From a phage, in sequence record PZ386977.1: 64,000 nucleotides of DNA; one strand, given 5' to 3'. Positions 742 through 58,251 of the stretch are shown piece by piece (positions within the stretch are counted from its first letter, which is position 1; the number at the start of each line of letters is the position of its first letter). The notes beneath the pieces are model-generated. The model saw only the letters and a program-made list of their open reading frames with translations. It was not told the DNA's origin and made no database searches. The position numbers and the translations under genes are program-made.

Positions 742-770
742 ATAATAACATAACCTGTACCAAAGTAAAC
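742..770 (-). promoter_or_regulatory. early sigma70-type promoter (GTTTAC -35, 17-nt spacer, TATTAT -10)
   Basis: Plus-strand ataata at 742-747 and gtaaac at 765-770; flanked by inverted repeat ggtacagg/cctgtacc. Confidence 0.6.
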
Positions 771-774
771 TGTT

Positions 775-1143
775 TTATGCAACTTTAATCCAATTGTCTA
801 AATTTAAAACACCTTTGGCTTTCATTTTTTCGATCAGGTTATCTGCTGTAATGCGTCCATTTTGATACCATGTAACATCTTCAGAGTAACCAGTTTCTTC
901 GTCAACATATGTTTCTGAACGAATTTTACCGGTAATAATAGTTTTTAATTCATATGTGTCACCTGTGAAAAAGTTTGCTAACACAATTTTCCAAGAGAAA
1001 TCATCAGAAGGACCTTCAGGGGTCATACAACCTACGAACTCAAATTGCTCTTTGTATAACATCCACTGGAATTCTTTAATTTCGATAGCTTTATAACCGT
1101 CATGGTCTTTACATTTGATGTATGAGTTCAGATTGATTTTCAT
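775..1143 (-). CDS. hypothetical protein (122 aa)
   Basis: ORF track; promoter upstream. Confidence 0.6.
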   Translation of the reverse strand: MKINLNSYIKCKDHDGYKAIEIKEFQWMLYKEQFEFVGCMTPEGPSDDFSWKIVLANFFTGDTYELKTIITGKIRSETYVDEETGYSEDVTWYQNGRITADNLIEKMKAKGVLNLDNWIKVA

Positions 1144-1185
1144 TTTGTTCTCCAGGTTGTTTTATTGATTAGGTGGTACAAGTCT

Positions 1186-1214
1186 ATAGTAACACATCCT
1201 ACAGGAGAGTAAAC
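1186..1214 (-). promoter_or_regulatory. early promoter (GTTTAC -35, TACTAT -10)
   Basis: gtaaac at 1209-1214, atagta 17 nt away on plus strand. Confidence 0.55.
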
Positions 1215-1250
1215 ATCTTTTTAAACTTTTTCTGCCCTAAACGCACAAAA

Positions 1251-1268
1251 GGGAGACCGAAGTCTCCC
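1251..1268 (-). terminator. intrinsic terminator hairpin GGGAGAC-UUCG-GUCUCCC followed by UUUUG on minus RNA
   Basis: Perfect 7-bp stem, tetraloop, T-run in minus orientation (plus 1241-1250 acgcacaaaa). Confidence 0.7.
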
Positions 1269-1273
1269 TAAAA

Positions 1274-1453
1274 TTATGCAACAACCTTTCCAAAACGAGA
1301 AGCATCATCTCGAAGAACTGCACGTGCTCTGCGCATGATCTTCTCAACTGTTTGATTAATACGAGAGTTCGACCCACGCTTGTATCCAGCGCGTTTAGAG
1401 GTACCATCAACTTTCTTTTCAACTGCTTTCTTTGCTTTAGCTTGTTTTGCCAT
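1274..1453 (-). CDS. small basic Lys/Arg-rich protein (59 aa), function unknown
   Basis: Own translation: MAKQAKAKKAVEKK...RFGKVVA, ATG at 1451-1453, stop immediately before terminator hairpin; below 60-aa cutoff of ORF track. Confidence 0.5.
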   Translation of the reverse strand: MAKQAKAKKAVEKKVDGTSKRAGYKRGSNSRINQTVEKIMRRARAVLRDDASRFGKVVA

Positions 1454-1748
1454 TATAAATTCTCTTTAAATGAAAATGCAGGACTTATTGACATTGCCTG
1501 CGCAAGCCCTCAAGGGGAACATAGGTTTTGGATATTTAACGACAGGATAACCATAAACCCGTCATCATACCAACCACGACTTAGACAGATAACCTTTTTC
1601 TGACGCGTGATAGTACAAAATACATTCAAGAGGTACACCGTAAAACTGCCGGGGTCTTAAAACTATAATGATTCGCAAATCATTAATCAGACAGTTCGAC
1701 GGCTCCTCGATTTTCTAGCCGCACTTAAGGTAGCGAATCACCTAAAAC

Positions 1749-1997
1749 TTATTTAAGGGTAATAACAAAATGACGTACTGCTTTACGAGCTGCAGAAGCC
1801 AAAGGCTTAGCATATTTCAGTTCATCTTTTGCTTCCAGTTCAGAGGCCAAAGCTGCCTGAGCAGGATTCAGATGTTTGAAATATCGCAGGATTTCCAGTG
1901 CTTCAGCTTCAACATCAATTGAAGCGCCGTAGTTTTCGTGACCGTTATTCCATGCGTTGCGTTGCAGTTCAAGAGCGTGTTGTAATTGTTTAATCAT
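1749..1997 (-). CDS. rIII: rIII lysis-inhibition accessory protein (82 aa)
   Basis: Near-identical to recalled T4 rIII (MIKQLQHALELQRNAWNNGHENYGA...); size and position next to gene 31. Confidence 0.85.
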   Translation of the reverse strand: MIKQLQHALELQRNAWNNGHENYGASIDVEAEALEILRYFKHLNPAQAALASELEAKDELKYAKPLASAARKAVRHFVITLK

Positions 1998-2121
1998 TTT
2001 AAATTCTCAATTCGAGATAATATTTAGTAGCCACGTTCGTCTGAATTTCACCTTCTTTCGACAAGTCTCTCGGTTGTAGGCTACCGCTTAGAAGAGTGTT
2101 CTCTTCATATAGTTATTTATA

Positions 2122-2454
2122 TCACTTATAAAGACACGGAATAGCTTTATAGTGGCATGTTACGAATTTCTGTTTAATTTCTTTAGGTTGTTTAAGTCCC
2201 AAAGCCACAAATGGATGTGGAACATTTCGAATTTGTCCAACTGGTAGTGGAGTCAAATCACCGACTTCAACAAAACCTTCAGGAACATCAGGACCTACAG
2301 AATGAACTACACATAGTTCAGGAACTTCACCTTGAACACGTTTACCAATCACAAGTCCTGATTCGGTAACTTCTTCATCACCTGCTTGAGCGGGTTCAGA
2401 AACCAGAATGACATATTCACCAACAGCACGAATTGGGAGTTGTACTTCAGACAT
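2122..2454 (-). CDS. 31: gp31 GroES-like co-chaperonin for capsid protein folding
   Basis: 110 aa, [34 protein letters not shown]... matches T4 gp31. Confidence 0.9.
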
Positions 2455-2484
2455 CTTATTTCCTTGTTGTTTGACGATAGATTA

Positions 2485-2509
2485 ATAATACCATACTATT
2501 CGTAAAGCA
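2485..2509 (-). promoter_or_regulatory. MotA-dependent middle promoter (MotA box TGCTTTA, 12-nt spacer, TATTAT -10)
   Basis: Plus taaagca at 2503-2509 and ataata at 2485-2490, upstream of gene 31 start. Confidence 0.6.
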
Positions 2510-2511
2510 TA

Positions 2512-2820: not shown

Positions 2821-3391
2821 AAAAGTTTCGGATTTGTTCCCAATTCAGAGAACGAAGATTATTACGAGAGTACTGAATTACTTCAATACCGGCTTGTTTA
2901 AGAATGTCTGCCCAATTTTCAGGAGATCTGTCATATAACTCAGCGTATACAACCTTTTTAATACCTGACTGCGTAATAGCTTTAGTGCAATCAGGACATG
3001 GAGAAAGCGTAGTATATAACGTAGCACCTTCAATAGAATTACCTTTACGAGCTGCAAATAAAATTGCATTCAATTCTGCATGTATTTCGTTATTAGCAGA
3101 CCATGCACTATGAGCAGCCCGATGTTCTTTAGCTAAAACAAAATTATCTACCCGTCCAAATGCTGTAGTGCCTTCTTTATGTCCAGCAACGATGGCTGGG
3201 ATTGGTTTATTCTTCAACCAACCATTTTCAGATGCATGTTCGCAACAGTTAACGCCACCTGCAGGTGAACCGTTATATCCAGTAGAGATAATGCGTCCAT
3301 CTTTTTCAATGACGGCACCAACTTTCCATGAACAACATTTTGATTCTTGAGAAATCAGATATGCAATCTGAAGGTATGTGCTAGCTTTCAT
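2810..3391 (-). CDS. cd: dCMP deaminase
   Basis: 193 aa; HAELNAI and PCxxC zinc-binding deaminase motifs; T4 cd size. Confidence 0.9.
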   Translation of the reverse strand: MKASTYLQIAYLISQESKCCSWKVGAVIEKDGRIISTGYNGSPAGGVNCCEHASENGWLKNKPIPAIVAGHKEGTTAFGRVDNFVLAKEHRAAHSAWSANNEIHAELNAILFAARKGNSIEGATLYTTLSPCPDCTKAITQSGIKKVVYAELYDRSPENWADILKQAGIEVIQYSRNNLRSLNWEQIRNFCGE

Positions 3392-4383
3392 TATTGAACC
3401 TTATTAATATAAGTTAACAGCTCTTTAGTTTGTTCCCAACTGATGCACGCATCGGTAACGGAAATGCCATAGGACATATTATCAGAAATTTTTTGATTTC
3501 CTTCATGTAGGAACGATTCTATCATAATTCCTTTGACCAAATCATTAGCTGCTAAATTTTTACCAATACCAATTTGATTGCTATAATGCCCTTCAGCGTT
3601 TGCATGGCTACAGTCAACCATTACATAATGATTCAGACCTACTGCCCTTGCTTTGTTAGAAGCTTCTTGAATATCAGAAGAATGATAGTTCGGGCCGTTG
3701 GTCCCGCCACGCAATACGATATGCGTATTCTGATTACCTTCAGCTTCAACAATGCCTACAGTACCATCGACGTCCATACCCATATACCGATGAGGCCAGG
3801 CGGCACTATACATCGCGTCTGTAGCTACTTTAATAGAACCATTGGTTGCGTTCTTGAAGCCTACGCACATCGGTAGACCTGAAGCAATTTCACGATGTGT
3901 CTGACTTTCAGTCGTACGGGCGCCAATAGCAACCCATGAGAAAATACCAGAAAGATACTTAATCGTGAATGGGTCTAATACTTCAGTTGCTAATGGAAGT
4001 CCCATACGTAGAAGTTTACGACACAATGTTCGTGCAACTATAAGACCGTGGTTCATATCAAAACTTCCGTCAAGATATGGATCATTTACAAGACCTTTCC
4101 AACCTACGGTAGTTCGAGGCTTTTCAAAATAAACGCGCATCACTAACAGAACATTAGGAAGACGAGTTTGAAGTTCAGCCAGACGTTTGCCGTATTCAAC
4201 AGCAGCAATAGGGTCATGAATTGAACAAGGACCTACAACAATAAGTTTGCGTGGGTCTTCACCATTCATAATCGAATTAACTTGTTCGCGATGAGAAGCC
4301 ACTTGTGATGCGTAAGCTTCCGACAAAGGAATAATCTCAGCCAGTTCTTTTGGAGAAATAAGTTTTCCGACGACAGGTAACAT
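3391..4383 (-). CDS. 3-deoxy-D-arabino-heptulosonate-7-phosphate (DAHP) synthase, class I (AroG/AroF-like)
   Basis: 330 aa; LIVVGPCSIHD, VMRVYFEKPRTTVGWKGL, IGARTTESQ, GFKN motifs as in E. coli AroG; stop overlaps cd start; AAGGA SD. Confidence 0.85.
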   Translation of the reverse strand: MLPVVGKLISPKELAEIIPLSEAYASQVASHREQVNSIMNGEDPRKLIVVGPCSIHDPIAAVEYGKRLAELQTRLPNVLLVMRVYFEKPRTTVGWKGLVNDPYLDGSFDMNHGLIVARTLCRKLLRMGLPLATEVLDPFTIKYLSGIFSWVAIGARTTESQTHREIASGLPMCVGFKNATNGSIKVATDAMYSAAWPHRYMGMDVDGTVGIVEAEGNQNTHIVLRGGTNGPNYHSSDIQEASNKARAVGLNHYVMVDCSHANAEGHYSNQIGIGKNLAANDLVKGIMIESFLHEGNQKISDNMSYGISVTDACISWEQTKELLTYINKVQ

Positions 4384-4503
4384 AACAATCCTTAGGAGAT
4401 ATAAACAGATTCTGATTCAACAATACCTTTAACCGGATTAGACAGGCTAAGTTGGTAGTGCTCAGATTTATGACCATTCTCGATAGTAATGAGATAACTC
4501 TCA

Positions 4504-4740
4504 TTATAGTGTTCCGTATACTCGAGTTGCTTCAACAAGACCATCACTGCCTAATTTAAGATTAGTAATTTGGTCACCATCTTTAGGATTAACGATTACG
4601 AGAAAAGAACGTGGAGATTCTTGAATAACTCGTAATGTTGCATCTTGGAAACGTTCAGACACTTTATTGATGAGTGCTTGAGCAAATTCTTTTACTTTAA
4701 TCTGAAATTCGTGTACTGTAATTGGGTTTTCACTTAGCAT
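4504..4740 (-). CDS. hypothetical protein (78 aa)
   Basis: ORF track; promoter upstream. Confidence 0.55.
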   Translation of the reverse strand: MLSENPITVHEFQIKVKEFAQALINKVSERFQDATLRVIQESPRSFLVIVNPKDGDQITNLKLGSDGLVEATRVYGTL

Positions 4741-4768: not shown

Positions 4769-4798
4769 ATAGTATCACAACTCCACCGTGTTGTAAAC
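4769..4798 (-). promoter_or_regulatory. early promoter (GTTTAC -35, TACTAT -10, 18-nt spacer)
   Basis: gtaaac 4793-4798, atagta 4769-4774. Confidence 0.5.
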
Positions 4799-6894: not shown

Positions 6895-6924
6895 ATTATA
6901 ATCTGCTCCTGAGAGTTTGTAAAC
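6895..6924 (-). promoter_or_regulatory. early promoter (GTTTAC -35, TATAAT -10, 18-nt spacer)
   Basis: gtaaac 6919-6924, attata 6895-6900; -10 sits in inverted repeat ggagca/tgctcc. Confidence 0.55.
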
Positions 6925-8300: not shown

Positions 8301-8330
8301 ATAGTAACACCATCCTTGGTGTTTGTAAAC
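8301..8330 (-). promoter_or_regulatory. early promoter (GTTTAC -35, TACTAT -10)
   Basis: gtaaac 8325-8330, atagta 8301-8306. Confidence 0.55.
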
Positions 8331-9483: not shown

Positions 9484-9513
9484 ATTGTACCACAATCCTT
9501 GTGGTATGTAAAC
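9484..9513 (-). promoter_or_regulatory. early promoter (GTTTAC -35, TACAAT -10)
   Basis: gtaaac 9508-9513, attgta 9484-9489; overlaps 3' end of denA. Confidence 0.5.
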
Positions 9514-9923: not shown

Positions 9924-9949
9924 AATAAAGTGGGACCGAAGTCCCGTCC

Positions 9950-11128
9950 TTAGAAATATTTTTTGTATGAATTGATTACATTTTGGTCTACATCATTATC
10001 AATTTGTGCTACAAGATAAGAACTGATTTCAACTTCCTGAGGAGCGGCTTGAACTAAATCAGAGTTCAGGTATTCACGAATCCAAGGATACGGATGCTTG
10101 GTCGGAGCATCAGTGATTGGGCATGGCAACCCGCACTGTTTCATACGAGACACAGTCAAGTAATCAACAAAAGCACACATACTTTGCGTATTGATACCTG
10201 GACATGTACCATCTTTAAAGAGGTGTGCAGCCCATTCCTTCTCTTGACTATTTACTTCCATAAAAATGTCAACTGCTTCTTGTTCACATTCTTTAGCAAT
10301 TTGAACCCACTCATCGCCATCAGTACCAGATTGAAGTTGACGGATAATGTACTGAGTACCCTTGAGGTGGAGTTGTTCGTCACGAGCAATGAACTTCATA
10401 ATCTTTGCATTACCTTCCATAATTTCCATATTTTTATGGAAGTTGAAAGTACAAGCAAAAGATACATAAAAACGAATAGCTTCCAGGGCATTGATAACGT
10501 GAAGACAGAGATAAAGCGACTTCATCAGGTCTCGTTTACATTCTTCCAAATGAGTGAGACTGTTTGAATATGCTTCTAAATCATATTCATTTTCGGAAAA
10601 ACATTTAAAAATTTCTTTAGCATTTTCCCATTCACGTGTTTTAACCAGAACATCATCGTAATATTTACCTATTGATTCAGCTCGTTTCATGATTGCTTCG
10701 TCTAATACAATCTCATCAAATACCTTAGATGGGTCTGTATAAAGATTTCGCATAATATGAGTATATGAACGAGAGTGAATAGTTTCACTGAATGTCCATG
10801 TTGCAACCCATGTATCTAATGAAGGGTCAGAAATAAGTGCCATAAGTACCGCAGATGGGGCCCTGCCTTGGATAGAATCTAATAATGATTGATACTTAAG
10901 ATTGTTTGTAAAGATGTCCTGTTGGAACTGAGGAAGCTTATTGAACTGCGCAGAGTCCAACATCAAGTTTACCTCTTCTGGGCGCCAGAAAAACGACAAT
11001 TGCTTTTCAATAAGTTCTTCAAAAACTTTATGTCGCTGAATATCATAACGTGCGAGGCCAAGACCAGAACCAAAGAACATCGGTTCATTCAAAACATCGA
11101 CTTGTTGCGTGTTAAAAACTGTACTCAT
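9950..11128 (-). CDS. nrdB: ribonucleotide reductase small subunit, uninterrupted
   Basis: 392 aa contiguous ORF; di-iron ligand context (EEVNLM..., RDEQLH), position after nrdA. Confidence 0.9.
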   Translation of the reverse strand: MSTVFNTQQVDVLNEPMFFGSGLGLARYDIQRHKVFEELIEKQLSFFWRPEEVNLMLDSAQFNKLPQFQQDIFTNNLKYQSLLDSIQGRAPSAVLMALISDPSLDTWVATWTFSETIHSRSYTHIMRNLYTDPSKVFDEIVLDEAIMKRAESIGKYYDDVLVKTREWENAKEIFKCFSENEYDLEAYSNSLTHLEECKRDLMKSLYLCLHVINALEAIRFYVSFACTFNFHKNMEIMEGNAKIMKFIARDEQLHLKGTQYIIRQLQSGTDGDEWVQIAKECEQEAVDIFMEVNSQEKEWAAHLFKDGTCPGINTQSMCAFVDYLTVSRMKQCGLPCPITDAPTKHPYPWIREYLNSDLVQAAPQEVEISSYLVAQIDNDVDQNVINSYKKYF

Positions 11129-11182: not shown

Positions 11183-13438
11183 TTAAAGCTTACAAGCAGA
11201 ACAATCTTCAGCTTTAGGTGTTTCTAATTCATAGTCATCTGTACCTGACCCATCACGAGTGTTATGATAGTAGAGGTTTTTTCCGCCAAAGTACCAGAAG
11301 TAAAGCAGATCGTCAAGCATTACTGACATTGGCACTTTACCTTTCTCAAATACTGCAGGGTCATAGTAAGTATTAGCAGAAGCAGATTGGCACACCCATT
11401 TCAACATGATAGCAACTTGGGTCAAATAAGGTTTATTACCTTTCTTAGCAAGTTTCCACGCGTAGTCGTAAAGACCCATGTTATGTTCTATATTAGGAAC
11501 AACCTGACGGAAGTTGCCTTCTTTAGATTCTTTAATACTCACTGGACCACGCGGCGGTTCAATCCCGTTTGTAGAGTTTGATACTTGACTGCTTGACTCA
11601 CAAGGCATGAGAGCGCTAAGTGTACTGTTACGAATTCCGTGTTCTTTGAGTTCAGCTCGAAGTTCTTCCCAGTCACAGACGTAGTTCGGGGCTGCGATTT
11701 GGTCAATCTTTTTATTGTACCAGTCGATAGGTAATTCGCCTCTAGACCATTTAGTGTCTGAATAATACTCGCAACATCCTTTTTCTTTGGCGAGTTTGAT
11801 TGAAGCTTTGATAAGGCCATATTGCAATCTCTCAAACAATTCATGAGTCAAATCGTTAGCGTCTTCATATGAAGCGAAGTTAGAAGCTAACCATGCAGCA
11901 TAGTTCGTAACACCAACACCAAGATTACGACGCTTTTTGGCTTTTAAAGCTTCTGGAACCGGATAATCTTGATAGTCTAACAGGTTATCAAGTGCACGTA
12001 CTTGTACTTCAGCAAGTTCATTAATTTTATCTTGGTCTTGCCAATCAAATTTATCTAACACGAATGCAGATAATGTGCATAAACCAATTTCAGCATCAGG
12101 ACCATTCACATCATTAGTTGGAATAGCGATTTCACAACATAAGTTACTCTGACGAATTGGAGCTTTTTCACGAATAAATGGAGTGTAGTTGTTCGTGTTA
12201 TCAACGAATTGCGGATAAATTCGAGCAGTGCCAGAACGTTCAGTCATGAACAATTCAAAGAGTTCTAGTGCTTTGATTCTTTTCTTTCTGATTGTTGGGT
12301 CTTTTTCAGCTTTCTCATAAAGCTCACGGAATTTATCTTGATCTTCAAAGAACGAGTAGTATAGTTCGCCTGACATTTCGTGAGGGCTAAATAAAGTAAT
12401 ATAATCATTTTTACCAAGGCGTTCCATCATAAGGTCATTAATCTGAATTCCGTAGTCCATATGTCGAATACGGTTTTCATCCACGCCTTTGTTATTTTTC
12501 AGAACTAATAGGTTCTCTACTTCTAAGTGCCACATTGGATAATACGCTGTAGCAGCACCGCCACGAATACCGCCTTGAGAACAAGATTTTACTGCAGTTT
12601 GGAAATGTTTCCAGAATGGAATAACACCTGTATGTCGAACTTCACCCATACCGATCTTAGAACCTTCTGCACGAAGCATACCAACGTTGATACCAATACC
12701 AGCTCGTTTAGAAATATATTCAATAATTGATGCTGAAGTTTTGTTAATAGATTTTAACGAATCACCGGCTTCAATAACTACACAACTAGAGAACTGGCGA
12801 GTTGGAGTACGAGCACCTGCCATAATTGGGGTTGGCAATGAAACTTGATGAGTAGAAACGGCGTCATAAAAACGAATAATATGTTTCAAACGGTCATGAG
12901 TTTCATCTTGATGTAAGGCCATACCAATAGCCATGATAGCAAACTGTGGAGTTTCATAAATCTTCCCAGTTGTTTTATCTTTAACCAGGTATTTTTCTTT
13001 AAGCTGCATAGCACCAGCATAAGTCAGATCAAAATCTCGCTCATGTTTAATCCGAGAATCAAGATAAATGATTTCTTCTGCAGAATATCTAGACAACAAC
13101 TCAGGATCGTATTTGCCTTCATTAACACAATACGAGATATGGTCGATAAAAGCAGGAGGTTCAAACTGACCATACACATCTTTACGAAGTGCGAACATTA
13201 ATCCTTTAGCGGCAACATATTGATAATCAGGTTCTTCGACAGAAATCGAGTTAGCTGCAACTTTAATACAAATCTTCTGAATATCTTTGGTGCTCATCCC
13301 GTCAACAAGATGGGTCTTAATTTCTTCGTACAATTCATATGGGTCAATTTGTGTTCCTTCACACTGCCAAGTTAAGACTTGAATAATTTTCTGTGCATCA
13401 AAATTTTGGGATACACCACTGCTCTTAGTTACTTGCAT
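11183..13438 (-). CDS. nrdA: ribonucleotide reductase large subunit
   Basis: 751 aa; class Ia RNR catalytic motifs (NLCCEI, CESS...), C-terminal CSACKL-type tail. Confidence 0.95.
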   Translation of the reverse strand: MQVTKSSGVSQNFDAQKIIQVLTWQCEGTQIDPYELYEEIKTHLVDGMSTKDIQKICIKVAANSISVEEPDYQYVAAKGLMFALRKDVYGQFEPPAFIDHISYCVNEGKYDPELLSRYSAEEIIYLDSRIKHERDFDLTYAGAMQLKEKYLVKDKTTGKIYETPQFAIMAIGMALHQDETHDRLKHIIRFYDAVSTHQVSLPTPIMAGARTPTRQFSSCVVIEAGDSLKSINKTSASIIEYISKRAGIGINVGMLRAEGSKIGMGEVRHTGVIPFWKHFQTAVKSCSQGGIRGGAATAYYPMWHLEVENLLVLKNNKGVDENRIRHMDYGIQINDLMMERLGKNDYITLFSPHEMSGELYYSFFEDQDKFRELYEKAEKDPTIRKKRIKALELFELFMTERSGTARIYPQFVDNTNNYTPFIREKAPIRQSNLCCEIAIPTNDVNGPDAEIGLCTLSAFVLDKFDWQDQDKINELAEVQVRALDNLLDYQDYPVPEALKAKKRRNLGVGVTNYAAWLASNFASYEDANDLTHELFERLQYGLIKASIKLAKEKGCCEYYSDTKWSRGELPIDWYNKKIDQIAAPNYVCDWEELRAELKEHGIRNSTLSALMPCESSSQVSNSTNGIEPPRGPVSIKESKEGNFRQVVPNIEHNMGLYDYAWKLAKKGNKPYLTQVAIMLKWVCQSASANTYYDPAVFEKGKVPMSVMLDDLLYFWYFGGKNLYYHNTRDGSGTDDYELETPKAEDCSACKL

Positions 13439-13473
13439 ATATTCCTCAGTATAGGTTGATAGACATTACTCCA

Positions 13474-13496
13474 AACGGGATAGTATTTATCCCGTT
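13474..13496 (-). other. stem-loop (7-bp stem, 9-nt loop) in nrdA 5' region
   Basis: aacggga / tcccgtt inverted repeat; minus RNA followed by UUUGGAG. Confidence 0.45.
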
Positions 13497-15477: not shown

Positions 15478-15511
15478 TTTATTCTCCTCTTCACTTTTAT
15501 TTGATAGGGCT

Positions 15512-15541
15512 ACTATAACATAACCCTATCTGATTGTAAAC
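15512..15541 (-). promoter_or_regulatory. early promoter inside inverted repeat GATAGGG/CCCTATC (PeSL-like)
   Basis: gtaaac 15536-15541, actata 15512-15517; perfect 7-bp arms at 15503-15530. Confidence 0.55.
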
Positions 15542-15974: not shown

Positions 15975-16003
15975 ATATTAACACATCCAGGGAAGAAGTA
16001 AAC
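15975..16003 (-). promoter_or_regulatory. early promoter (GTTTAC -35, TAATAT -10)
   Basis: gtaaac 15998-16003, atatta 15975-15980. Confidence 0.5.
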
Positions 16004-16034
16004 AACTTTTTCGGCAATTTACAGATACTCAAAA

Positions 16035-16052
16035 GGGAGACCGAAGTCTCCC
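16035..16052 (-). terminator. intrinsic terminator GGGAGAC-UUCG-GUCUCCC + UUUUG downstream of gene 32
   Basis: Perfect 7-bp stem, tetraloop, T-run on minus strand. Confidence 0.75.
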
Positions 16053-16058
16053 AATTTA

Positions 16059-16958
16059 TTATAGACCAGCTAACAGGTCATCGAGGTCGCCGTCGTCAGA
16101 AGACGAGGAACTCATGAAGTCATCTTCAGTTTTTGCAGAACCAAAGGCTTCCATGTCTTTATCAAAATCGTCAAGGTCAGAAGCAACTTTATCTGCAACA
16201 GAAGCTGCGGCAGCTGCTGCACCACCAAGAGCGGCAGTACCAAGAACTTGATTAAATTTAGTATTCAATTCTTCAAACGATTTGAACTTATCTTTAGAAG
16301 TCATTTCAGAAAGGTCAACCATTTGTTCGAACAATTCTTTCTGGAAAGATTCATCATCAATGTTTGGAATCGCAGATTGATTCAGGAATTTAGATTCATC
16401 GTAGTTACTGAAACCAGAAACCTGTTTAACTTTCAGCACAAAGTTAGCACCTTCCCATGGGCAAGTTACATCAACAGGAGTTTCACCCATTTCAGTATCG
16501 ACTGCAATCATTGCATTGATTTTGTCCCAAATCTTTTTACCGAAACGATATTTGAATACTTTACCTTCATTATCTGGAGCTTGTGGGTCTTTAACAACCA
16601 GGATATTAGCCCAATAAGAAGTTTTACGTTTCAGTTGAGAATATTCTGTTTTGTTTGTATTGTATAGGTCATTTTTACTAATGTACTGACATACAGGACA
16701 AGAGTCATAATCGCCGTGTGTAGATGAACAGGTTTCAATATACCATTTGCCATTTTTCTTGAACCCGTGGTTAACAAGAATTGTAAACGGAAGTGCGTCA
16801 TCTGTTTTTGCCGGCAGGAAACGAATTACCGCTTGACCATTACCGGATGCATCGAGTTTCAGCTTCCATTCACCTTTATCTTCTGAAGAGAAACCTTTGT
16901 TACCATTCAGTTTAGCCATCTGAGCTGCGAGGTCTGCGGTACTTTTACGTTTAAACAT
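16059..16958 (-). CDS. 32: gp32 single-stranded DNA-binding protein
   Basis: 299 aa; [23 protein letters not shown]..., zinc-site Cys/His context, acidic Ser/Asp-rich C-terminus. Confidence 0.95.
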
Positions 16959-19269: not shown

Positions 19270-19299
19270 ATAGTAACACACTCATTTGAAAGCGTAAAC
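19270..19299 (-). promoter_or_regulatory. early promoter for rnh (GTTTAC -35, TACTAT -10)
   Basis: gtaaac 19294-19299, atagta 19270-19275; divergent from gene 34 late promoter. Confidence 0.55.
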
Positions 19300-24352: not shown

Positions 24353-24357
24353 ATTTA

Positions 24358-29777: not shown

Positions 29778-29807
29778 TATAGTACCATTATCAGTGTTGA
29801 TTGTAAA
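29778..29807 (-). promoter_or_regulatory. early promoter for asiA (GTTTAC -35, TACTAT -10, 18-nt spacer)
   Basis: gtaaac 29802-29807, atagta 29778-29783. Confidence 0.5.
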
Positions 29808-29952
29808 CGGCTTTTTCTACGCTTTTAACGTAATCAATGTAGTCTTCCTGTTCATACGAGTGTAAGGCCAAGAATGGAACTAATAGTTCATTATAGACTA
29901 AAGCCTCACGCTCACGTTCGGCCTCTACTACGTTCTGAAGATTATGACTCAT
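29791..29952 (-). CDS. small acidic protein (53 aa)
   Basis: ATG at 29950-29952 with AAGGA SD; track ORF 29791..30006 is extended upstream over the arn-like gene. Confidence 0.5.
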   Translation of the reverse strand: MSHNLQNVVEAEREREALVYNELLVPFLALHSYEQEDYIDYVKSVEKAVYNQH

Positions 29953-32238: not shown

Positions 32239-32304
32239 TTTATTTCTCCAAATTAGTATTTGTTTTGATAGGTCTATAATATCATGTTTGAAGCAAAAGT
32301 AAAC
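32231..32304 (-). repeat. direct repeat copy A (promoter + leader + first codons of motA)
   Basis: ttagacattttatttctccaa ... gttttgataggtctataatatcatgtttgaagca shared with 32550-32625. Confidence 0.8.
32276..32304 (-). promoter_or_regulatory. early promoter for motA (GTTTAC -35, TATTAT -10)
   Basis: gtaaac 32299-32304, ataata 32276-32281. Confidence 0.6.
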
Positions 32305-32341: not shown

Positions 32342-32557
32342 TTACAAACTCATTTCTTTAATAAGGCCAATAAGTTTTGCCTTTTTAGAACGAAGCTTTT
32401 CTAAATGACGTCCATTTGAACCGCGAACCACTAAAGAATTGATTTCAACTTCTAAGAAATTTAATTCTTTAACAAGTGCTTTACGAGGAGCATTCATACC
32501 AGGTTTAACTTTACCGAAACGAGTAGTTGTGTTTTGGGTTAATTTCATTTTAGACAT
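32342..32557 (-). CDS. hypothetical basic protein (71 aa)
   Basis: ORF track; begins MSKMKL, inside duplicated promoter cassette. Confidence 0.55.
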   Translation of the reverse strand: MSKMKLTQNTTTRFGKVKPGMNAPRKALVKELNFLEVEINSLVVRGSNGRHLEKLRSKKAKLIGLIKEMSL

Positions 32558-32625
32558 TTTATTTCTCCAATTTGGTTGTTTTGTTTTGATAGGTCTATAA
32601 TATCATGTTTGAAGCACATGTAAAC
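32550..32625 (-). repeat. direct repeat copy B
   Basis: Same 21-nt and 34-nt blocks as 32231-32304. Confidence 0.8.
32597..32625 (-). promoter_or_regulatory. early promoter (GTTTAC -35, TATTAT -10)
   Basis: gtaaac 32620-32625, ataata 32597-32602. Confidence 0.6.
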
Positions 32626-35136: not shown

Positions 35137-35165
35137 TTTGTATTCCTCGTGTTTTGATAGGACTA

Positions 35166-35195
35166 CTATACCATAATCCTACCTTGTTGTAAACA
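35166..35195 (-). promoter_or_regulatory. early promoter, PeSL-like (-10 inside taggact/aatccta repeat)
   Basis: gtaaac 35190-35195, actata 35166-35171. Confidence 0.55.
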
Positions 35196-35676: not shown

Positions 35677-35706
35677 ACTATATCATAGTCCTACTTAGTT
35701 GTAAAC
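35677..35706 (-). promoter_or_regulatory. early promoter, PeSL-like (-10 inside perfect 8-bp repeat taggacta/tagtccta)
   Basis: gtaaac 35701-35706, actata 35677-35682. Confidence 0.55.
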
Positions 35707-41118: not shown

Positions 41119-41144
41119 AATTAAGCCTTATTAAAATTAAAATG

Positions 41145-43027: not shown

Positions 43028-43043
43028 AAGGGCCGAAGCCCTT
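43028..43043 (-). terminator. intrinsic terminator AAGGGC-UUCG-GCCCUU + UUUGCUU
   Basis: 6-bp stem, tetraloop, U-run on minus strand; overlaps stop of 43042..43464. Confidence 0.65.
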
Positions 43044-44280: not shown

Positions 44281-44308
44281 AATATTCTCCTCTTGTTTTG
44301 ATAGGTCT

Positions 44309-44338
44309 ATAGTATCATAGACCATAGTTGTTGTACAT
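44309..44338 (-). promoter_or_regulatory. early promoter, PeSL-like (TGTACA -35, TACTAT -10 inside ggtctat/atagacc repeat)
   Basis: tgtaca 44333-44338, atagta 44309-44314. Confidence 0.5.
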
Positions 44339-44862
44339 CATTTTAGCAAAATAAAATCAACTTGTTCTGCCAATGAACGTCTAAACATTAATTGACAACT
44401 TCCGAGGATGAAATCAGGTGCTTCATAGACCGCGATGTAGTATCCTTTAGCTTTCAAGAGTTCAACATCCACCTGGTCATCAAACCATGCATAAACCGCG
44501 TCAACACTTTCAAATCCAAAATAGAACCCTTGAGCCCAATCTTCGTTCAATTCAAATGTGTGCTCAATTCTATAGTATCTTAAGATATTTTGTTCAAGGA
44601 GTTTGTCTTCATTTACTGTAGGACGATTAGGGACATTATAGTTGTCGCCGTGATGGTAGAAGTTACCTGAGAGTATTCCATGCTTATCAAGGAACTCCCA
44701 TGTTTCTTCAGAGTTGTCGGTGCCCGACCAACCGTAAGGTGAGCGAGGTTCTTTATTCCAGGAGATTTCCCAAATTCTGACGGCTTTACCATCTTCGATA
44801 GCAACTCCTGGTAAAGATTCACGTTGAGTACAAAAACTACGTTCTACGCGGTAAACTAACAT
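44338..44862 (-). CDS. hypothetical protein (174 aa)
   Basis: ORF track; promoter upstream. Confidence 0.55.
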   Translation of the reverse strand: MLVYRVERSFCTQRESLPGVAIEDGKAVRIWEISWNKEPRSPYGWSGTDNSEETWEFLDKHGILSGNFYHHGDNYNVPNRPTVNEDKLLEQNILRYYRIEHTFELNEDWAQGFYFGFESVDAVYAWFDDQVDVELLKAKGYYIAVYEAPDFILGSCQLMFRRSLAEQVDFILLK

Positions 44863-44888
44863 ATTATTCTCCTCTAGTCGATAGATTT

Positions 44889-44917
44889 ATAGTATCAAAA
44901 CTAGAGGAGAAGTAAAC
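44889..44917 (-). promoter_or_regulatory. early promoter (GTTTAC -35, TACTAT -10) inside cctctagt/actagagg repeat
   Basis: gtaaac 44912-44917, atagta 44889-44894. Confidence 0.55.
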
Positions 44918-46393: not shown

Positions 46394-46423
46394 ATTATAC
46401 TCCAACCATCCTTGGTTGTAAAC
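46394..46423 (-). promoter_or_regulatory. early promoter (GTTTAC -35, TATAAT -10, 18-nt spacer)
   Basis: gtaaac 46418-46423, attata 46394-46399. Confidence 0.5.
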
Positions 46424-49535: not shown

Positions 49536-49563
49536 ATAATATCATGCCCTCAGGTAGTGTACA
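49536..49563 (-). promoter_or_regulatory. early promoter (TGTACA -35, TATTAT -10, 16-nt spacer)
   Basis: tgtaca 49558-49563, ataata 49536-49541. Confidence 0.45.
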
Positions 49564-49638
49564 CTCTTTTTTCATAAAATGCTTTAATTTTTTATGTGTT
49601 ATAATGGTTCTGAGTTCCATCCGGTTATTCCAATCCAG

Positions 49639-50275: not shown

Positions 50276-50304
50276 ATAGTATCATCGTCGGTAGAGTTTG
50301 TACA
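50276..50304 (-). promoter_or_regulatory. early promoter (TGTACA -35, TACTAT -10)
   Basis: tgtaca 50299-50304, atagta 50276-50281. Confidence 0.5.
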
Positions 50305-50886
50305 CTAAAAATTCAACATTTTTAAATGAATGATTTTGTATAGTCGAGATAAAGGGTCATATTCTAAGTCTTCAATTTCTACAATCTCAAATCTAGAGAT
50401 ACCTGAGACCATGTATTCTTGTTCAGATTCAATCATATCTAGGACGTCAACACGTTTTTCTTCCATAACATGCTTAGGGTTCTTTCCGGCGAGTACAATG
50501 TTAACCATGTTTTGGTAGTAATCGAAAATGAACGGAGCATTCCTGAGACTAAGAATAGTGTACGTTTGATATTCCCAACTCCCAGAGAACTGTCTGGCCG
50601 TACCAAAGTCTGTTGTAAACGATGTTACTCGCCCGGGAGACCAATGACATCCAACAGAAAGAAGGGAAAGACGTTCTACTTCTTCTGGAGTTACACCACG
50701 GTAGAGTTCTACTGGTACTGTAGAAGTCATATGCTTACGAACAAGATGGTCTAATTCATAGTGGAAATCTGGGTCTTCCTTAGAATCAGTGCAAGCCCAG
50801 AGAATGTTTTGTTCTTGTTTAGTGAATTTATCATCAATTAGTGCTGCGAGATATTCGCGTTCTTGAAGTTCAGATTGACATGTCAT
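50305..50886 (-). CDS. modB: ADP-ribosyltransferase, ModA/ModB family (second copy)
   Basis: 193 aa; R (LYRGVTPEE), S-x-T (TSFTTDFG), E-x-E (ESEQEY). Confidence 0.7.
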   Translation of the reverse strand: MTCQSELQEREYLAALIDDKFTKQEQNILWACTDSKEDPDFHYELDHLVRKHMTSTVPVELYRGVTPEEVERLSLLSVGCHWSPGRVTSFTTDFGTARQFSGSWEYQTYTILSLRNAPFIFDYYQNMVNIVLAGKNPKHVMEEKRVDVLDMIESEQEYMVSGISRFEIVEIEDLEYDPLSRLYKIIHLKMLNF

Positions 50887-50913: not shown

Positions 50914-50942
50914 ATCATAACACGAGAGGAGGGAATGTAAAC
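50914..50942 (-). promoter_or_regulatory. early promoter (GTTTAC -35, TATGAT -10)
   Basis: gtaaac 50937-50942, atcata 50914-50919. Confidence 0.45.
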
Positions 50943-52353: not shown

Positions 52354-52426
52354 ATTGTTCTCCTCTTGAGTAAGTAAGAATATCTTAACACAGTTTTTAG
52401 TGGATGTAAACTCTAGAAACGAAAAA

Positions 52427-52446
52427 AGGAATCCCGAAGGATTCCT
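52427..52446 (-). terminator. intrinsic terminator AGGAAUCC-UUCG-GGAUUCCU + UUUUUUC after soc
   Basis: Perfect 8-bp stem, tetraloop, 6-T run on minus strand. Confidence 0.8.
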
Positions 52447-52454
52447 TAAATTAT

Positions 52455-53346: not shown

Positions 53347-53544
53347 ATGTTTAAACTTACATCGTTAATCAACGCTATTAAAGGCAATAAAAAGAAAACT
53401 GCTATCGCCGCAATAGTTGTAGGTGGCATTATTTCATGGAACTTCGGGATTGCACCATTGTTAGTTGCCCATGGTATTATAGTTCCTTCTGTTCCATTGG
53501 ATACCGTAGTTGATTTGGCCTTTGCTATTATAGGACTTGTTTAA
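53347..53544 (+). CDS. small two-TMD membrane protein (65 aa) on plus strand
   Basis: Strong AAGGAG SD 7 nt before ATG; hydrophobic segments AIAAIVVGGIISWNF and VVDLAFAIIGLV; convergent with gene 61. Confidence 0.5.
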   Translation: MFKLTSLINAIKGNKKKTAIAAIVVGGIISWNFGIAPLLVAHGIIVPSVPLDTVVDLAFAIIGLV

Positions 53545-56234: not shown

Positions 56235-56263
56235 TTTAACTCCTTAGTTGATTTGATAGGACT

Positions 56264-56293
56264 ACTATACCATAGTCCATCTATAATGTAAAC
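56264..56293 (-). promoter_or_regulatory. early promoter, PeSL-like
   Basis: gtaaac 56288-56293, actata 56264-56269 inside ggactact/tagtcc repeat. Confidence 0.55.
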
Positions 56294-56546: not shown

Positions 56547-56574
56547 GTTAATTTCCTCTTGATTTGTTATGTTT

Positions 56575-56604
56575 ATAATATCTTGTTTTAACTTTGGTGT
56601 AAAC
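56575..56604 (-). promoter_or_regulatory. early promoter (GTTTAC -35, TATTAT -10, 18-nt spacer)
   Basis: gtaaac 56599-56604, ataata 56575-56580. Confidence 0.5.
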
Positions 56605-56607
56605 CAA

Positions 56608-56976
56608 TTAATTAAATTTGTTTAAACGTTCAATACACTGGACGTAGTTATTAGCGATTTGTTTCTGGGAAGGCTCTTTACCAGTTGTTTCAACATAGCG
56701 AATGAATGCGATTTCAGTAGCCTGTAAGCAATGTTCTTTAACGCGTTGTTCTTTTGTCAATGCTACAGTATCAGAATCACGATAACGTTGAGCATGGGCA
56801 TCAGCTTGAATCATTCGATTACCTACAGTAACTGGGTCTTCCACTTCAACTTTAGGTTGGTTGTACTGTTTAACATTCGGGTTATAAATCAATTGGCCAA
56901 CATTATTAGGGATAAAGCCATGGGCACCACATCCGGTTAATCCAAATACCATTGCTAAAGCGATTAATTTTTTCAT
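56608..56976 (-). CDS. putative lipoprotein (122 aa)
   Basis: Signal peptide with lipobox LTGC (MKKLIALAMVFGLTGCGAHG). Confidence 0.6.
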   Translation of the reverse strand: MKKLIALAMVFGLTGCGAHGFIPNNVGQLIYNPNVKQYNQPKVEVEDPVTVGNRMIQADAHAQRYRDSDTVALTKEQRVKEHCLQATEIAFIRYVETTGKEPSQKQIANNYVQCIERLNKFN

Positions 56977-57004
56977 TTCAATTTCCTCTGTAGTTGATAG
57001 AAAG

Positions 57005-57034
57005 ATAGTAACACATTATGTAGTGCTTGTAAAC
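57005..57034 (-). promoter_or_regulatory. early promoter (GTTTAC -35, TACTAT -10)
   Basis: gtaaac 57029-57034, atagta 57005-57010. Confidence 0.5.
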
Positions 57035-57036
57035 AG

Positions 57037-57249
57037 CTATTTTAAACTTTTGCGAAATTTGCGTTTTTCTTGACGAATCTGTCGTTTAGTCGGACGTACA
57101 GCAAATTTAACGAAGTCCACTTTGCCGTGTGGAAACTTTTCAGATGCTTCACAGTCCATCATTAGTTCCCATCCTTCCAGAATAAGAGCTTTCCATTGCG
57201 TAGTTGATGCAAATTCGTATGTCGATGGTTTAAACACAGTTGAATACAT
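57037..57249 (-). CDS. hypothetical basic protein (70 aa)
   Basis: ORF track. Confidence 0.5.
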   Translation of the reverse strand: MYSTVFKPSTYEFASTTQWKALILEGWELMMDCEASEKFPHGKVDFVKFAVRPTKRQIRQEKRKFRKSLK

Positions 57250-57250
57250 A

Positions 57251-57442
57251 TTATCCTCTTAAATCGGCTTCAAAAACTTTCTCGTCATTAACAAATGCTT
57301 TAACTAATGCTTTGTTCACTTCAGCAAGTTGTACCGCAACCCACTCGATTTCTTCGCGATCACCTGATAACATGATATCTTTAGTGAACATCTCGCCGCT
57401 TTTAAACCAACCGATAAAAGTAACTTTAGTTAATTTGCTCAT
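57251..57442 (-). CDS. dmd: Dmd-like antitoxin (inhibitor of host RnlA/LsoA RNase toxins)
   Basis: 63 aa from ATG 57440-57442 (MSKLTKVTFIGWFKSGEMFTKDI...EVNKALVKAF); GAGGA SD; resembles recalled T4 Dmd. Confidence 0.6.
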   Translation of the reverse strand: MSKLTKVTFIGWFKSGEMFTKDIMLSGDREEIEWVAVQLAEVNKALVKAFVNDEKVFEADLRG

Positions 57443-57756
57443 ATTTCCTCGCAAAATGCCCATTCAGCGTGATAAACTGTAGCACCTTTAGTATCATTCA
57501 TTTGAACTACGTCTACCGGAGAAATTACTCGATAGAGACGTGGTTCACCTCCATAAGAGCGTGCTGCTCGTCCTGCATAAATCTTTGCTAAACCGATATC
57601 TTCAGTAAAGAATACACGATTCAAGTTTTTCTTACGCCCAGTTTCAGACAGAACTCCTGTTTCCTCAGGAGGACAAAGCATGTTTTCGATGTTAGCTGAA
57701 CTACTTGAACCGTGATAAAAAATCTTAAATTCTGCTTTACAATCGATGGTTTTCAT
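57439..57756 (-). CDS. hypothetical protein (105 aa)
   Basis: ORF track; stop overlaps dmd start (ATGA). Confidence 0.55.
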   Translation of the reverse strand: MKTIDCKAEFKIFYHGSSSSANIENMLCPPEETGVLSETGRKKNLNRVFFTEDIGLAKIYAGRAARSYGGEPRLYRVISPVDVVQMNDTKGATVYHAEWAFCEEI

Positions 57757-57782
57757 TTTGTTCTCCAGTAGTTGATAGGTCT

Positions 57783-57811
57783 ATAATAACACAACTACTG
57801 GAGAAGTAAAC
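57783..57811 (-). promoter_or_regulatory. early promoter (GTTTAC -35, TATTAT -10)
   Basis: gtaaac 57806-57811, ataata 57783-57788. Confidence 0.55.
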
Positions 57812-58186
57812 TTAAAAACGTAATTTAGATATATCTGCGTTGATTTCGTTTTGGTTTGCGTCGTATGCAATTAAACGAACCGCTTTAGATGGGTCATTCA
57901 ATGCATAGAAATGATGGAACATTGCTCGAACGATATCGCCATTTACGAGTTCTACCTGGATAGGAGAACCTTTTTCGAGTTGGAAATGTTCATAAGCTTT
58001 GATGGTTCGTAGATAATCAAGTTTTTGATTTCCAGCTCCAACTATTTGTACGATACGTTTGCCCATGTTTTCCATACGAGATACAATAGTTTTAGGAGCA
58101 AGAATAACGTAGGTTGCCAGCGGAGAAACTACTTCAACAGTTGTGTTTTCGGTGATTGCAGTAAAAATTGCTTGAGACATATTCAT
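57812..58186 (-). CDS. hypothetical protein (124 aa)
   Basis: ORF track. Confidence 0.55.
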   Translation of the reverse strand: MNMSQAIFTAITENTTVEVVSPLATYVILAPKTIVSRMENMGKRIVQIVGAGNQKLDYLRTIKAYEHFQLEKGSPIQVELVNGDIVRAMFHHFYALNDPSKAVRLIAYDANQNEINADISKLRF

Positions 58187-58251
58187 AATGTTTTCCTCTT
58201 GGTTGGTGTAAGTTCATCATATCATGCTTAGAGGAAGATGTAAACCCCGAA

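Follow-up and report, generated by a model that had tools for sequence, protein, structure and literature searches.

Phage sequence record PZ386977.1, of which a stretch of 64,000 nucleotides (hereafter the window) was analyzed, carries on its minus strand a dispersed family of 26 intergenic cassettes that resemble the promoter early stem-loop (PeSL) elements of T4-type phages. With high confidence, these cassettes can be read as units of an early promoter and a ribosome-binding site (RBS) whose repeated core would allow occasional homologous exchange. With moderate confidence, the dyad embedded in part of them appears to have been selected as a sense-strand hairpin that acts on read-through RNA and masks the RBS in a minority of cases. 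Covariation between the two arms, a wobble bias specific to one strand, the lack of terminator tails and the coverage of some RBSs together point to such a role at the RNA level in read-through transcripts, rather than to termination. The full account, which combines PeSL early promoters, a hairpin in read-through RNA and recombination between promoter cores, is given a probability of about one half; the read-through RNA, the position of the start sites and all functional effects of the hairpin are inferred from sequence. The alternatives weighed below are, in order of decreasing likelihood, that the stem-loops are terminators, that the dyad is a by-product of promoter constraints, that it is a DNA-level recombination structure, and that it is a repressor operator.

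The window shares ~97% identity with Shigella phage SHSML-52-1 and with many Escherichia phages in the genus Mosigvirus, and can be assigned to a genome of Mosigvirus type (RB69 group, Tevenvirinae) within the T4 family. Identity to T4 itself is only 68-85%, within alignable blocks.

The cassette family

The sequence-only reading had proposed about 27 minus-strand sites built from GTTTAC or TGTACA, a spacer of 16-18 nt and TA(C/T)TAT. A literal search of the whole window finds 12 copies of GTTTAC-N16-18-TAYTAT, every one of them on the minus strand (chance expectation 0.12), and 3 further matches for TGTACA-N16-18-TAYTAT (chance expectation 0.13). The proposed number is approached only when the -10 box is relaxed to TAnnnT, which admits TATAGT, TATAAT, TATGAT and others and yields 26 strong intergenic sites between 742 and 58245; none of the 26 lies in the plus-strand tail-fibre block (19341-29471).

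The common layout consists of an AT-rich segment, GTTTAC, a spacer of 16-18 nt that contains TGn, then TAnnnT, a sequence AGaCCTATCAA that is conserved across cassettes directly 3' of the -10 box, a Shine-Dalgarno (SD) sequence and ATG. The TGn of an extended -10 is present in 23 of the 26 cassettes and an SD-like motif follows in all of them, while ATG stands 26-50 nt past the -10 box in 25; at 46394 an ATT stands at the start coordinate used, which is probably displaced by one base. Upstream of the -35 box, a segment of 25 nt has an A+T fraction of 0.75 (0.62 window-wide) and an A fraction of 0.40 (0.32 window-wide). In an unbiased repeat search, the cassettes constitute the largest dispersed direct-repeat families of the window (D1, D2, D3, D6 and D7). 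The near-identity earlier ascribed to 35151-35195, 35661-35706 and 56251-56293 did not survive alignment, as these cassettes (35165, 35677 and 56264; family D1) match the reference copy at only 64-70% of positions over 70 nt. Near-identity is found instead in the pair 32276/32597 (family D3), with 91% over 55 nt. The cassettes had also been described as flanking small accessory genes. Small open reading frames (ORFs) do follow them, but so do core early genes, namely asiA, motA, alc, modA, modB, srd, rnh, rnlA, imm and sp, and the genes directly downstream have a median length of 121 aa.

PeSL stems occur at five positions, most commonly in the stretch separating the -35 box from the -10 box or in overlap with the latter; G-T pairs were marked, promoter activity was shown, one stem lowered lacZ expression, and mini-circles were detected (Arbiol et al., 2010, PMC2839356). 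PeSLs were later extended to T4/PST, with the promoter consensus TTTACW-N17-TAYWAT (Comeau et al., 2014, PMC4122927). A reading of the 2014 paper, by which stems would lie strictly upstream of the -35 box, had made the PeSL label seem unfit for the window. This was corrected by the 2010 description, to which stems located between the two boxes, or in overlap with the -10 box, conform, and the label is upheld, the T4/PST consensus being matched as well. In RB69, 57 early promoters were predicted, and GT-rich and C-rich flanks were noted with structure left unmentioned (Nolan et al., 2006, PMC1524935). Furthermore, the T4 early promoter Pe133295 has its ortholog in cassette 4769. The consensus and this orthology identify the predicted promoters as T4-type sigma-70 early promoters. 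The T4 GenBank and RefSeq records contain no promoter annotation.

Inverted repeats in excess of chance

Each cassette was folded from the end of the -35 box to the start codon and scored against dinucleotide shuffles, a hairpin with z <= -2 being termed strong. Strong hairpins occur in about 10 of the 26 cassettes (742, 4769, 6895, 15512, 35165, 35677, 44889, 50914, 57783 and, on or close to the threshold, 56264), and weaker or borderline ones at 44309, 8301 and 9484. Five further cassettes have a terminator hairpin upstream of the -35 box, and about 8 of the 26 have neither kind. The inverted repeats singled out by the sequence-only reading are all present (GATAGGG/CCCTATC at 15503-15530, TAGGACTA/TAGTCCTA at ~35670-35694 and GGTCTAT/ATAGACC at 44304-44323). 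Its statement that the -10 box lies inside such a repeat in many cassettes applies to the strong and borderline cases, but not to most of the family. When the window, T4 and RB69 are pooled, 30 of 66 cassettes reach z <= -2.

The longest stem between the spacer and the downstream half averages 5.15 bp for a cassette's own halves, a mean that no permutation out of 20,000 attained, vs. 4.08 bp for swapped halves. For covariation, 108 distinct cassettes from the window and related phages were aligned without gaps, with TG and the T, A and T of the -10 box invariant by construction of the search. With the axis at the first two -10 bases, 51.6% of cells pair in register, vs. 28-45% in slid registers. 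Changes on both sides of a pair amount to 121 cells, against 88.7 +/- 8.9 after shuffling (0 of 500 shuffles reached the observed number), and pair columns mix A-U with G-C (column pair 8/27 with AU 15, GC 15 and UA 7; 10/25 with AU 20 and GC 18). The consensus is itself self-complementary, as the extended -10 TGATA faces the conserved TATCA and the GG at ~-22 stands opposite the CC at ~-3. Site-specific complementarity exists on top of this consensus-driven pairing. A scan of the whole window with Rfam 15 gave no match at the gathering score.

Hairpin geometry and the Shine-Dalgarno sequence

In every hairpin, the 5' arm is located within the promoter spacer and begins 0-13 nt past the -35 box. 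In the common type, the 3' arm begins in or just past the -10 box and ends 8-13 nt past it, which is the expected start site. A second, longer type has the SD itself as its 3' arm (57783 and 44889, with a 7-bp version at 58216). Complementarity between the spacer and the SD region is greater within a cassette than between swapped cassettes (p = 0.007).

With the spacer included, the leaders have folding energies of -13 to -21 kcal/mol (z -2.2 to -5.3), and the SD is base-paired at 57783 and 44889. The same leaders taken from the predicted start (+1), which was placed 7 nt past the -10 box, fold at 0 to -1.6 kcal/mol. The transcript of a cassette's own promoter would thus lack the 5' arm, since its predicted start lies inside the dyad.

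The strand likely to fold

Wobble pairs allow the two strands of the dyad to be told apart. A set of 36 non-redundant stems, each with 7 or more Watson-Crick pairs, was scored with G.T and A.C mismatches treated alike; the internal transition mismatches on the sense strand comprise 34 G.T and 2 A.C. Swapped partners, which serve as a composition-matched null, have a G.T share of 0.40-0.55, and base composition therefore does not explain 34:2. The ratio is inflated by G.T pairs that are forced by invariant promoter bases (column 13/22); with the -10 box, TGn and the preceding R excluded, it becomes 17:2 (p = 7e-4). The bias favors a sense strand that folds on its own, as a single strand. It speaks against a palindrome of the duplex, for example a protein operator or a two-sided cruciform. 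The simplest candidate for a sense-strand hairpin would be read-through RNA from upstream promoters.

A duplex palindrome is what would be expected if the dyad were an operator through which a dimeric phage protein silences early promoters minutes after infection. The mechanism of T4 early-promoter shut-off is described as incompletely understood, and the consensus is dyad-symmetric about the first -10 bases, where a repressor would block RNA polymerase. Nevertheless, an operator is highly improbable. Strand-asymmetric G.T pairs would be meaningless for a duplex-binding protein, and positions in the arms alternate between A-U and G-C (columns 8/27 and 10/25) with no fixed half-site. Ortholog arms can be completely different, and the dyad is missing from over half of the early promoters.

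Hairpins in related phages

Both stem classes are present in the early promoters of T4. Examples are GACAAGACTA/TAGTCTTGTC at T4 position 20583, GGTAGAGTT/AGCTCTACC at Pe133302 and GGTACAGG/CCTGTACC at 129890, while SD-covering stems stand upstream of alc, within the ndd cluster and at motB.2. The cassettes of RB49 have the same architecture. At the frd.1 promoter, different lineages carry their own arms at the same position (GATAGGGTTA, GATAGGGCTAT, CAGGGTAATGGT, AGGCTATGGTA, ATGGGGCTAT and AGGGTAGTAGT). A compensatory change is seen at 44889, where the window has CTAGT/ACTAG and both SHSML-52-1 and RB69 have CTGGTT/AACCAG, in phages that are ~97% identical. Upstream of the 105-aa ORF, relatives keep the anti-SD of the spacer with matching changes (TTCTCC...GGAGAA vs. 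ATCTCC...GGAGAT).

The stem of the 30.7 promoter is kept in close relatives, and the arms of this cassette (742) are kept in T4 as well, with one G.U variant in the contig L040. In a distant T4-like contig (L047, IMGVR_UViG_3300045988_118042; 53% protein identity), a GTTTAC promoter also lies upstream of the gp30.7 homolog. Its cassette has an 11-bp stem in which the spacer CTCCGTTGTAT pairs with ATACAACGGAG over the SD, with a folding free energy (dG) of -23.4 kcal/mol; as predicted from the fold, this is an independently evolved SD-occluding design. The cd.2 orthologs in IMG/VR are too few for covariation.

Two observations concern the history of single cassettes. According to the T4 record (133300-133313), 14 bp in Pe133295 were originally reported as the inverted complement; they make up the loop in the T4 counterpart of the 4769 hairpin (window ~4775-4790). 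The discrepancy could be an old sequencing artefact at the hairpin or a true inversion of the loop between strains. In SHSML-52-1, upstream of the frd.2 homolog (window ~15990-16003), the -35 box and the start of the spacer are duplicated in tandem over 15 nt (GTTTACTTCTTCCCT), which resembles the "slipped" degraded PeSLs (Comeau et al., 2014).

Terminators

A GC-rich stem followed by a U-run, as in intrinsic terminators, is found in family D8 (1249, 16033, 52426 and 58250), and after none of the 10 strong promoter hairpins. The 10 nt that follow these hairpins contain 0-3 T in nine of ten (44889 has 5 T with no run) and 5-8 A in eight of ten, and the hairpin segments are 33-43% GC. The lack of U-tails makes classical termination unlikely, and the published role as "terminator" doubtful for this phage.

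Terminators with TTCG tetraloops stand directly upstream of five cassettes (1186, 15975, 32597, 52382 and 58216) as terminator-plus-promoter composites, and none of the five has a strong -10 hairpin. By a hand count (0/7 vs. 9/19), cassettes shielded from read-through had appeared never to have hairpins. This was dropped after an automated count over the window, T4 and RB69, in which 5/15 shielded and 25/51 unshielded cassettes have one (p = 0.38).

These data bear on the proposal that the stem-loops terminate or attenuate upstream polymerase, and thus insulate each cassette-driven gene. In its favor is the RB49 PeSL211/210 stem-loop, which reduced expression about as much as rrnB T1 when it stood between promoter and lacZ (Arbiol et al., 2010), and cassettes adjoining TTCG terminators lack a strong -10 hairpin as if the two were alternatives. 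However, a reduced lacZ signal is equally explained by effects on translation or RNA stability, and the exclusivity of terminator and hairpin is not significant. The strong hairpins have mostly A-rich tails in place of U-runs and a low GC content, and the phage has separate, true GC-rich tetraloop terminators with T-tails (family D8). Termination is thus an unlikely function for the promoter hairpins.

A proposed hairpin in read-through RNA

In the mechanism proposed here, a long co-directional array with few terminators would let upstream polymerases transcribe the whole dyad. The read-through RNA would fold into a hairpin just before the next gene, and RNA from the gene's own promoter, which would start inside the dyad, would stay unfolded, such that each downstream gene would have two forms of mRNA. 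Where the stem covers the SD (44889, 57783 and, weakly, 58216), the read-through form would be poorly translated with its GGAG shielded from RegB, and protein would be made mainly from the gene's own early promoter. Hairpins of the -10 type would more likely act as an intercistronic barrier, a pause or a processing element.

Several observations weigh against this mechanism. The SD is actually covered in only 2-3 of the 26 cassettes. Removal of one further recurrent consensus-driven pair lowers the wobble asymmetry to ~12:2, and an RB49 replicate gave a G.T:A.C ratio of only 5:2, which with so few counts is not significant. Summed over the 26 cassettes, the two strands fold similarly (sense -269 vs. 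antisense -252 kcal/mol; 41 vs. 40 G.U pairs), and a sense-strand hairpin of single-stranded DNA (ssDNA) predicts the same G.T bias as an RNA hairpin. The hairpins found behind terminators, where read-through should be least, belong here as well. Finally, cassettes with shuffled partners pair at 49.8% of cells, vs. 51.6% observed, such that the pairing is mostly family consensus and promoter constraints explain much of the dyad.

Taken to its end, this last point makes the dyad a functionless by-product of promoter constraints that happen to be mutually complementary, namely the GT-rich segment at ~-20 to -13 including TRTG, the -10 box and the C-rich -3 to -1. Swapped partners form 38% Watson-Crick pairs in register 1 vs. 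22-31% in other registers, both halves were described as promoter consensus with no appeal to structure (Nolan et al., 2006), and over half of the cassettes have no significant hairpin. Against a by-product stands the site-specific covariation, which exceeds the consensus, as well as stems of 12-14 bp that reach the SD, far beyond the contacts of RNA polymerase. The compensatory changes in close orthologs, the lineage-specific arms at one promoter and the excess of G.T over A.C at unconstrained positions also speak for selection on pairing. A by-product in the full sense is therefore improbable, and a hairpin in read-through RNA is preferred here.

Gene gain and loss at cassettes

A promoter core of 40-60 nt that is repeated many times in the same orientation would be a substrate for homologous recombination. 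Exchange between cores could insert, delete or swap small genes without disturbing their expression. Indels were compared among the window, SHSML-52-1, NRG-P0074, p000v and RB69.

The clearest case is the 71-aa gene between cassettes 32276 and 32597. Window positions 32305-32549 are missing from RB69 and p000v, where the flanks overlap by ~80 nt and the single cassette is a hybrid of 32276 and 32597 with the crossover in their shared core of ~45 nt. In the phage collection, the gene is present in 77 related records and absent (a two-piece 60% match) in many, including 14 of 14 such records at 94-97% identity in a spread listing. The two cassettes lie 321 bp apart and have no hairpin (dG -3.6 and -2.4), which indicates that sequence identity is enough. 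For mini-circles of the PeSL kind, this pair would be the most evident substrate. At cassette 15975, RB69 has an extra ORF (ORF245c) that is flanked by repeated ATCAACAAATGAGGAAA. At 57005, p000v and some metagenomic contigs do not have the 70-aa gene upstream, and their junction falls within the AT-rich element. In SHSML-52-1, the gene driven by this cassette (imm.1) is preceded by another cassette, which bears a hairpin; the sequences become homologous again between the -10 box and the SD. In three contigs (L013, L017 and L018), all sequence upstream of the -10 box is replaced.

The remaining indels have no connection with cassettes; among them are homing endonucleases and introns, a deletion inside modB, a gene for a DAHP-synthase-like protein that is absent from RB69, and two others. 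In all, 3/7 non-endonuclease indels fall at cassettes, and enrichment over ordinary gene boundaries was not demonstrated. For cassettes 35165 and 35677, which are similar to each other, a presence/absence polymorphism of the enclosed 87-aa gene was expected but not seen, the gene being found in all ~153 genomes. The earlier suggestion that cassettes are tied to gene shuffling is borne out by junctions at three loci (32305-32549, 15975 and 57005), but the best pair has no hairpin. Judged from these junctions, exchange mediated by cassettes is real but occasional.

The modB deletion of p000v (505 bp, window 50343-50849) was considered as a further cassette-mediated event and rejected, since both of its ends are inside coding sequence, although it lies between two cassettes. 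It implies that the gene for this RNA-polymerase ADP-ribosylase is dispensable in that isolate.

The junctions inside cassettes could also be taken as support for a hairpin or cruciform at the DNA level, bound by a structure-specific protein such as endonuclease VII, which would create recombination hot spots and shuffle genes. The PeSL authors speculate about a target of recombination proteins and report that sequencing reactions were blocked at stems (Arbiol et al., 2010), and the G.T bias is one that a sense-strand ssDNA hairpin would share. The comparison of pairs is unfavorable to this idea, since the clearest recombining pair is hairpin-free yet 91% identical over 55 nt, and the gene between two hairpin-bearing cassettes (35165/35677) was never deleted in the ~153 genomes. 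A cruciform would moreover fold both strands, the other of which would hold A.C mismatches, and arms of 7-12 bp are short for extrusion. A DNA-level structure as the function of the dyad is thus quite unlikely.

Relation to known systems and significance

The window cassettes share with PeSLs an AT-rich region, sigma-70 boxes, a stem-loop with G-T pairs between the boxes or over the -10 box, an SD and ATG. They also share the dispersed, co-oriented intergenic copies and the indel or replacement junctions inside cassettes. PeSLs were published for RB49/phi1, T4/PST and nt-1/KVP40, whereas the window cassettes belong to the RB69 group. Furthermore, a significant stem is present in only ~40% of the window cassettes, these stems are AT-rich and lack U-tails, and the best recombination example needs no stem. 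Small genes with their own promoter that are gained and lost as units between conserved neighbors recall morons and gene indels at direct repeats. Unlike in morons, the conserved regulatory cassette itself supplies the homology for exchange, as the PeSL authors argue. A search of the available literature found no later functional work on PeSLs and no usable T4 transcript-boundary map.

With the early promoters of T4, the cassettes have in common GTTTAC, TGn, an A-rich upstream element, and the consensus in the spacer and at -3 to -1 (Nolan et al., 2006; Hinton, 2010, PMC2988021), and they stand upstream of the same genes (asiA, motA, alc, modA/B, srd, frd.1, cd.2 and 30.7). While reviews of the T4 promoters attribute the extra consensus to RNA-polymerase contacts, the corresponding blocks of the window are mutually complementary and covarying, with strand-specific wobble pairs.

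In T4, the RBS of the genes e, soc, 49 and I-TevI is hidden by a hairpin when the transcript is the long early one, and is accessible when transcription begins at a promoter inside the hairpin. That internal promoter is late or middle, and translation is delayed. The window cassettes resemble this arrangement in that the 5' arm lies upstream of an internal start and the 3' arm over the SD (44889 and 57783 in silico; 58216 weakly). They differ in that the internal promoter is an early sigma-70 promoter, by which translation is predicted to be limited to the earliest minutes, and in that most of the hairpins end before the SD. The cassettes are therefore analogues, not members, of this group.

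A broader proposal, which is put forward tentatively and with odds somewhat against it, is that the "extra" consensus blocks of the T4 family exist largely because they encode an RNA hairpin that forms only on read-through, with two mRNAs for each cassette gene. If this is true, mRNA from a gene's own promoter would be open and translated at once, and in read-through mRNA the hairpin would block the RBS or insulate cistrons from the decay of their neighbors, for example after RegB cleavage at GGAG. The e/soc/49 hairpin switch would thereby have a counterpart at early promoters across the genome, which would help to explain the scheduled stop of early-protein synthesis. Even the narrower RNA-level role, if correct, would give the extra conserved positions of T4 early promoters a different meaning and would offer a testable handle on early-gene timing.

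Since T4-type early promoters, PeSL cassettes and the 57 predicted RB69 promoters were already known, the catalogue itself is of small value. What the analysis contributes is the addition of the RB69 group to the phages that bear PeSLs, and, among more than 150 Mosigvirus genomes, a clean natural case in which cassette-to-cassette recombination adds or removes a gene with no need of a stem-loop.

Features of the window

Table 1. Predicted early promoters, associated gene and TTCG-tetraloop terminators of the window (dG in kcal/mol; "own" is the dG of the transcript from the cassette's own promoter).
Feature	Position (strand)	Downstream gene or setting	Hairpin	dG	z	Remarks
Early promoter	742..770 (-)	gp30.7 homolog (335-700)	GGTACAGGT/ACCTGTACC, around -10	-17.9	-4.0	
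Early promoter	1186..1214 (-)	30.8 homolog	no strong hairpin			TTCG terminator 36 nt upstream (1249-1276); family D8
Early promoter	4769..4798 (-)	between cd.3 and cd.2	GGTGGAGTT/AACTCTACC, G.U pairs	-16.0	-6.0	
Early promoter	6895..6924 (-)		AGGAGCA/TGCTCCT, around -10		-2.0	GTTTAC-N18-TATAAT
Early promoter	8301..8330 (-)	alc	ACACC/GGTGT, short, in spacer			
Early promoter	9484..9513 (-)	rnlA	CCACA/TGTGG, short, in spacer			
Early promoter	15512..15541 (-)	frd.1	GATAGGGTTA/TAGCCCTATC, around -10	-16.3	-4.4	own 0
Early promoter	15975..16003 (-)	frd.2				TTCG terminator at 16035-16052; extra ORF here in RB69
Early promoter	19270..19299 (-)	rnh	none			first past the plus-strand tail-fibre genes
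Early promoter	29779..29808 (-)	asiA	no strong hairpin			
Early promoter	32276..32304 (-)	motA				downstream copy of the 91%-identical direct-repeat pair (D3)
71-aa gene	32342..32557 (-)	between cassettes 32276 and 32597				presence/absence varies among Mosigvirus genomes
Early promoter	32597..32625 (-)	71-aa gene				upstream copy of the repeat pair; TTCG terminator directly upstream
Early promoter	35165..35194 (-)	ndd.1	GGTAGGATTA/TAGTCCTATC		-4.4	family D1
Early promoter	35677..35706 (-)	87-aa ORF (35387-35650)	TAGGACTA/TAGTCCTA	-13.2	-2.2	
Early promoter	44309..44338 (-)		GGTCTAT/ATAGACC			-35 is ATGTAC
Early promoter and leader (cassette 44889)	44862..44917 (-)	motB.2 homolog	TTCTCCTCTAGT/ACTAGAGGAGAA, 12 bp, spacer:SD	-20.0	-4.1	own -1.6
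Early promoter	46394..46423 (-)					GTTTAC-N18-TATAAT
Early promoter	49536..49564 (-)	srd				GTGTAC
Early promoter	50276..50305 (-)	modA				GTGTAC
Early promoter	50914..50942 (-)	modB	extended fold past SD/start	sense -20.2; antisense -8.1		CCTCC-rich spacer
Early promoter	52382..52411 (-)					TTCG terminator (52426-52447) directly upstream; canonical terminator-plus-promoter composite
Early promoter	56264..56293 (-)	sp	GGACTA/TAGTCC			family D1
Early promoter	56575..56604 (-)	imm	none			
Early promoter	57005..57034 (-)	imm.1				SHSML-52-1 cassette differs; p000v deletion junction in UP element
Early promoter and leader (cassette 57783)	57756..57811 (-)	105-aa ORF	TTCTCCAGTAGTTG/CAACTACTGGAGAA, 14 bp, spacer:SD	-20.9	-5.3	own 0
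Early promoter	58216..58245 (-)		TTCCTCT/AGAGGAA, 7 bp, spacer:SD			GGAGACTTCGGTCTCC terminator upstream; family D8
TTCG-tetraloop terminator	1249-1276 (-)					GC-rich, T-tail; family D8
TTCG-tetraloop terminator	16033-16060 (-)					GC-rich, T-tail; family D8
TTCG-tetraloop terminator	52426-52453 (-)					GC-rich, T-tail; family D8
TTCG-tetraloop terminator	58250-58277 (-)					GC-rich, T-tail; family D8
TTCG-tetraloop terminator	9932-9945 (-)					
TTCG-tetraloop terminator	36521-36536 (-)					
TTCG-tetraloop terminator	41145-41162 (-)					
TTCG-tetraloop terminator	43028-43043 (-)					

Outside the tail-fibre block, nearly all genes of the window lie on the minus strand. The gene order begins with the gp30.7 region, followed by nrd/td/frd, gene 32, and the plus-strand tail-fibre genes 34-38 with t. 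It continues with asiA, motA, 52, ndd, denB, rIIB, rIIA, 39, motB, dexA, dda and srd, and ends with modA/B, soc, 56, 61, sp, imm, dmd, 41 and uvsX. A lone 65-aa ORF on the plus strand (53347-53544), a homolog of RB69ORF029w, sits within the early region of the minus strand, flanked by genes 56 and 61.

The gene for the DAHP-synthase-like protein (330 aa) and a small ORF occupy window 3391-4547, and relatives annotate the product as phospho-2-dehydro-3-deoxyheptonate aldolase. The gene is present in the window and in NRG-P0074 and not in RB69, with a junction overlap of 19 nt and no cassette at the junction. The window does not have the intron and homing-endonuclease insertions of nrdB and td or the other homing endonuclease genes, which NRG-P0074, SHSML-52-1 and p000v carry at the corresponding points (window 10452-10603, 13417-13474, 14093, 17731 and 41172). 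The large subunit of topoisomerase (40018-42978 region) is encoded by one 605-aa gene, which is split into 39 and 60 in T4. Between this gene and rIIA.1 sits a 366-aa ORF with no assigned function, a homolog of RB69ORF003c. Gene 34, for the proximal tail fibre, contains the internal repeat families D4 and D5 (~48-67 nt) at 20619-21455.

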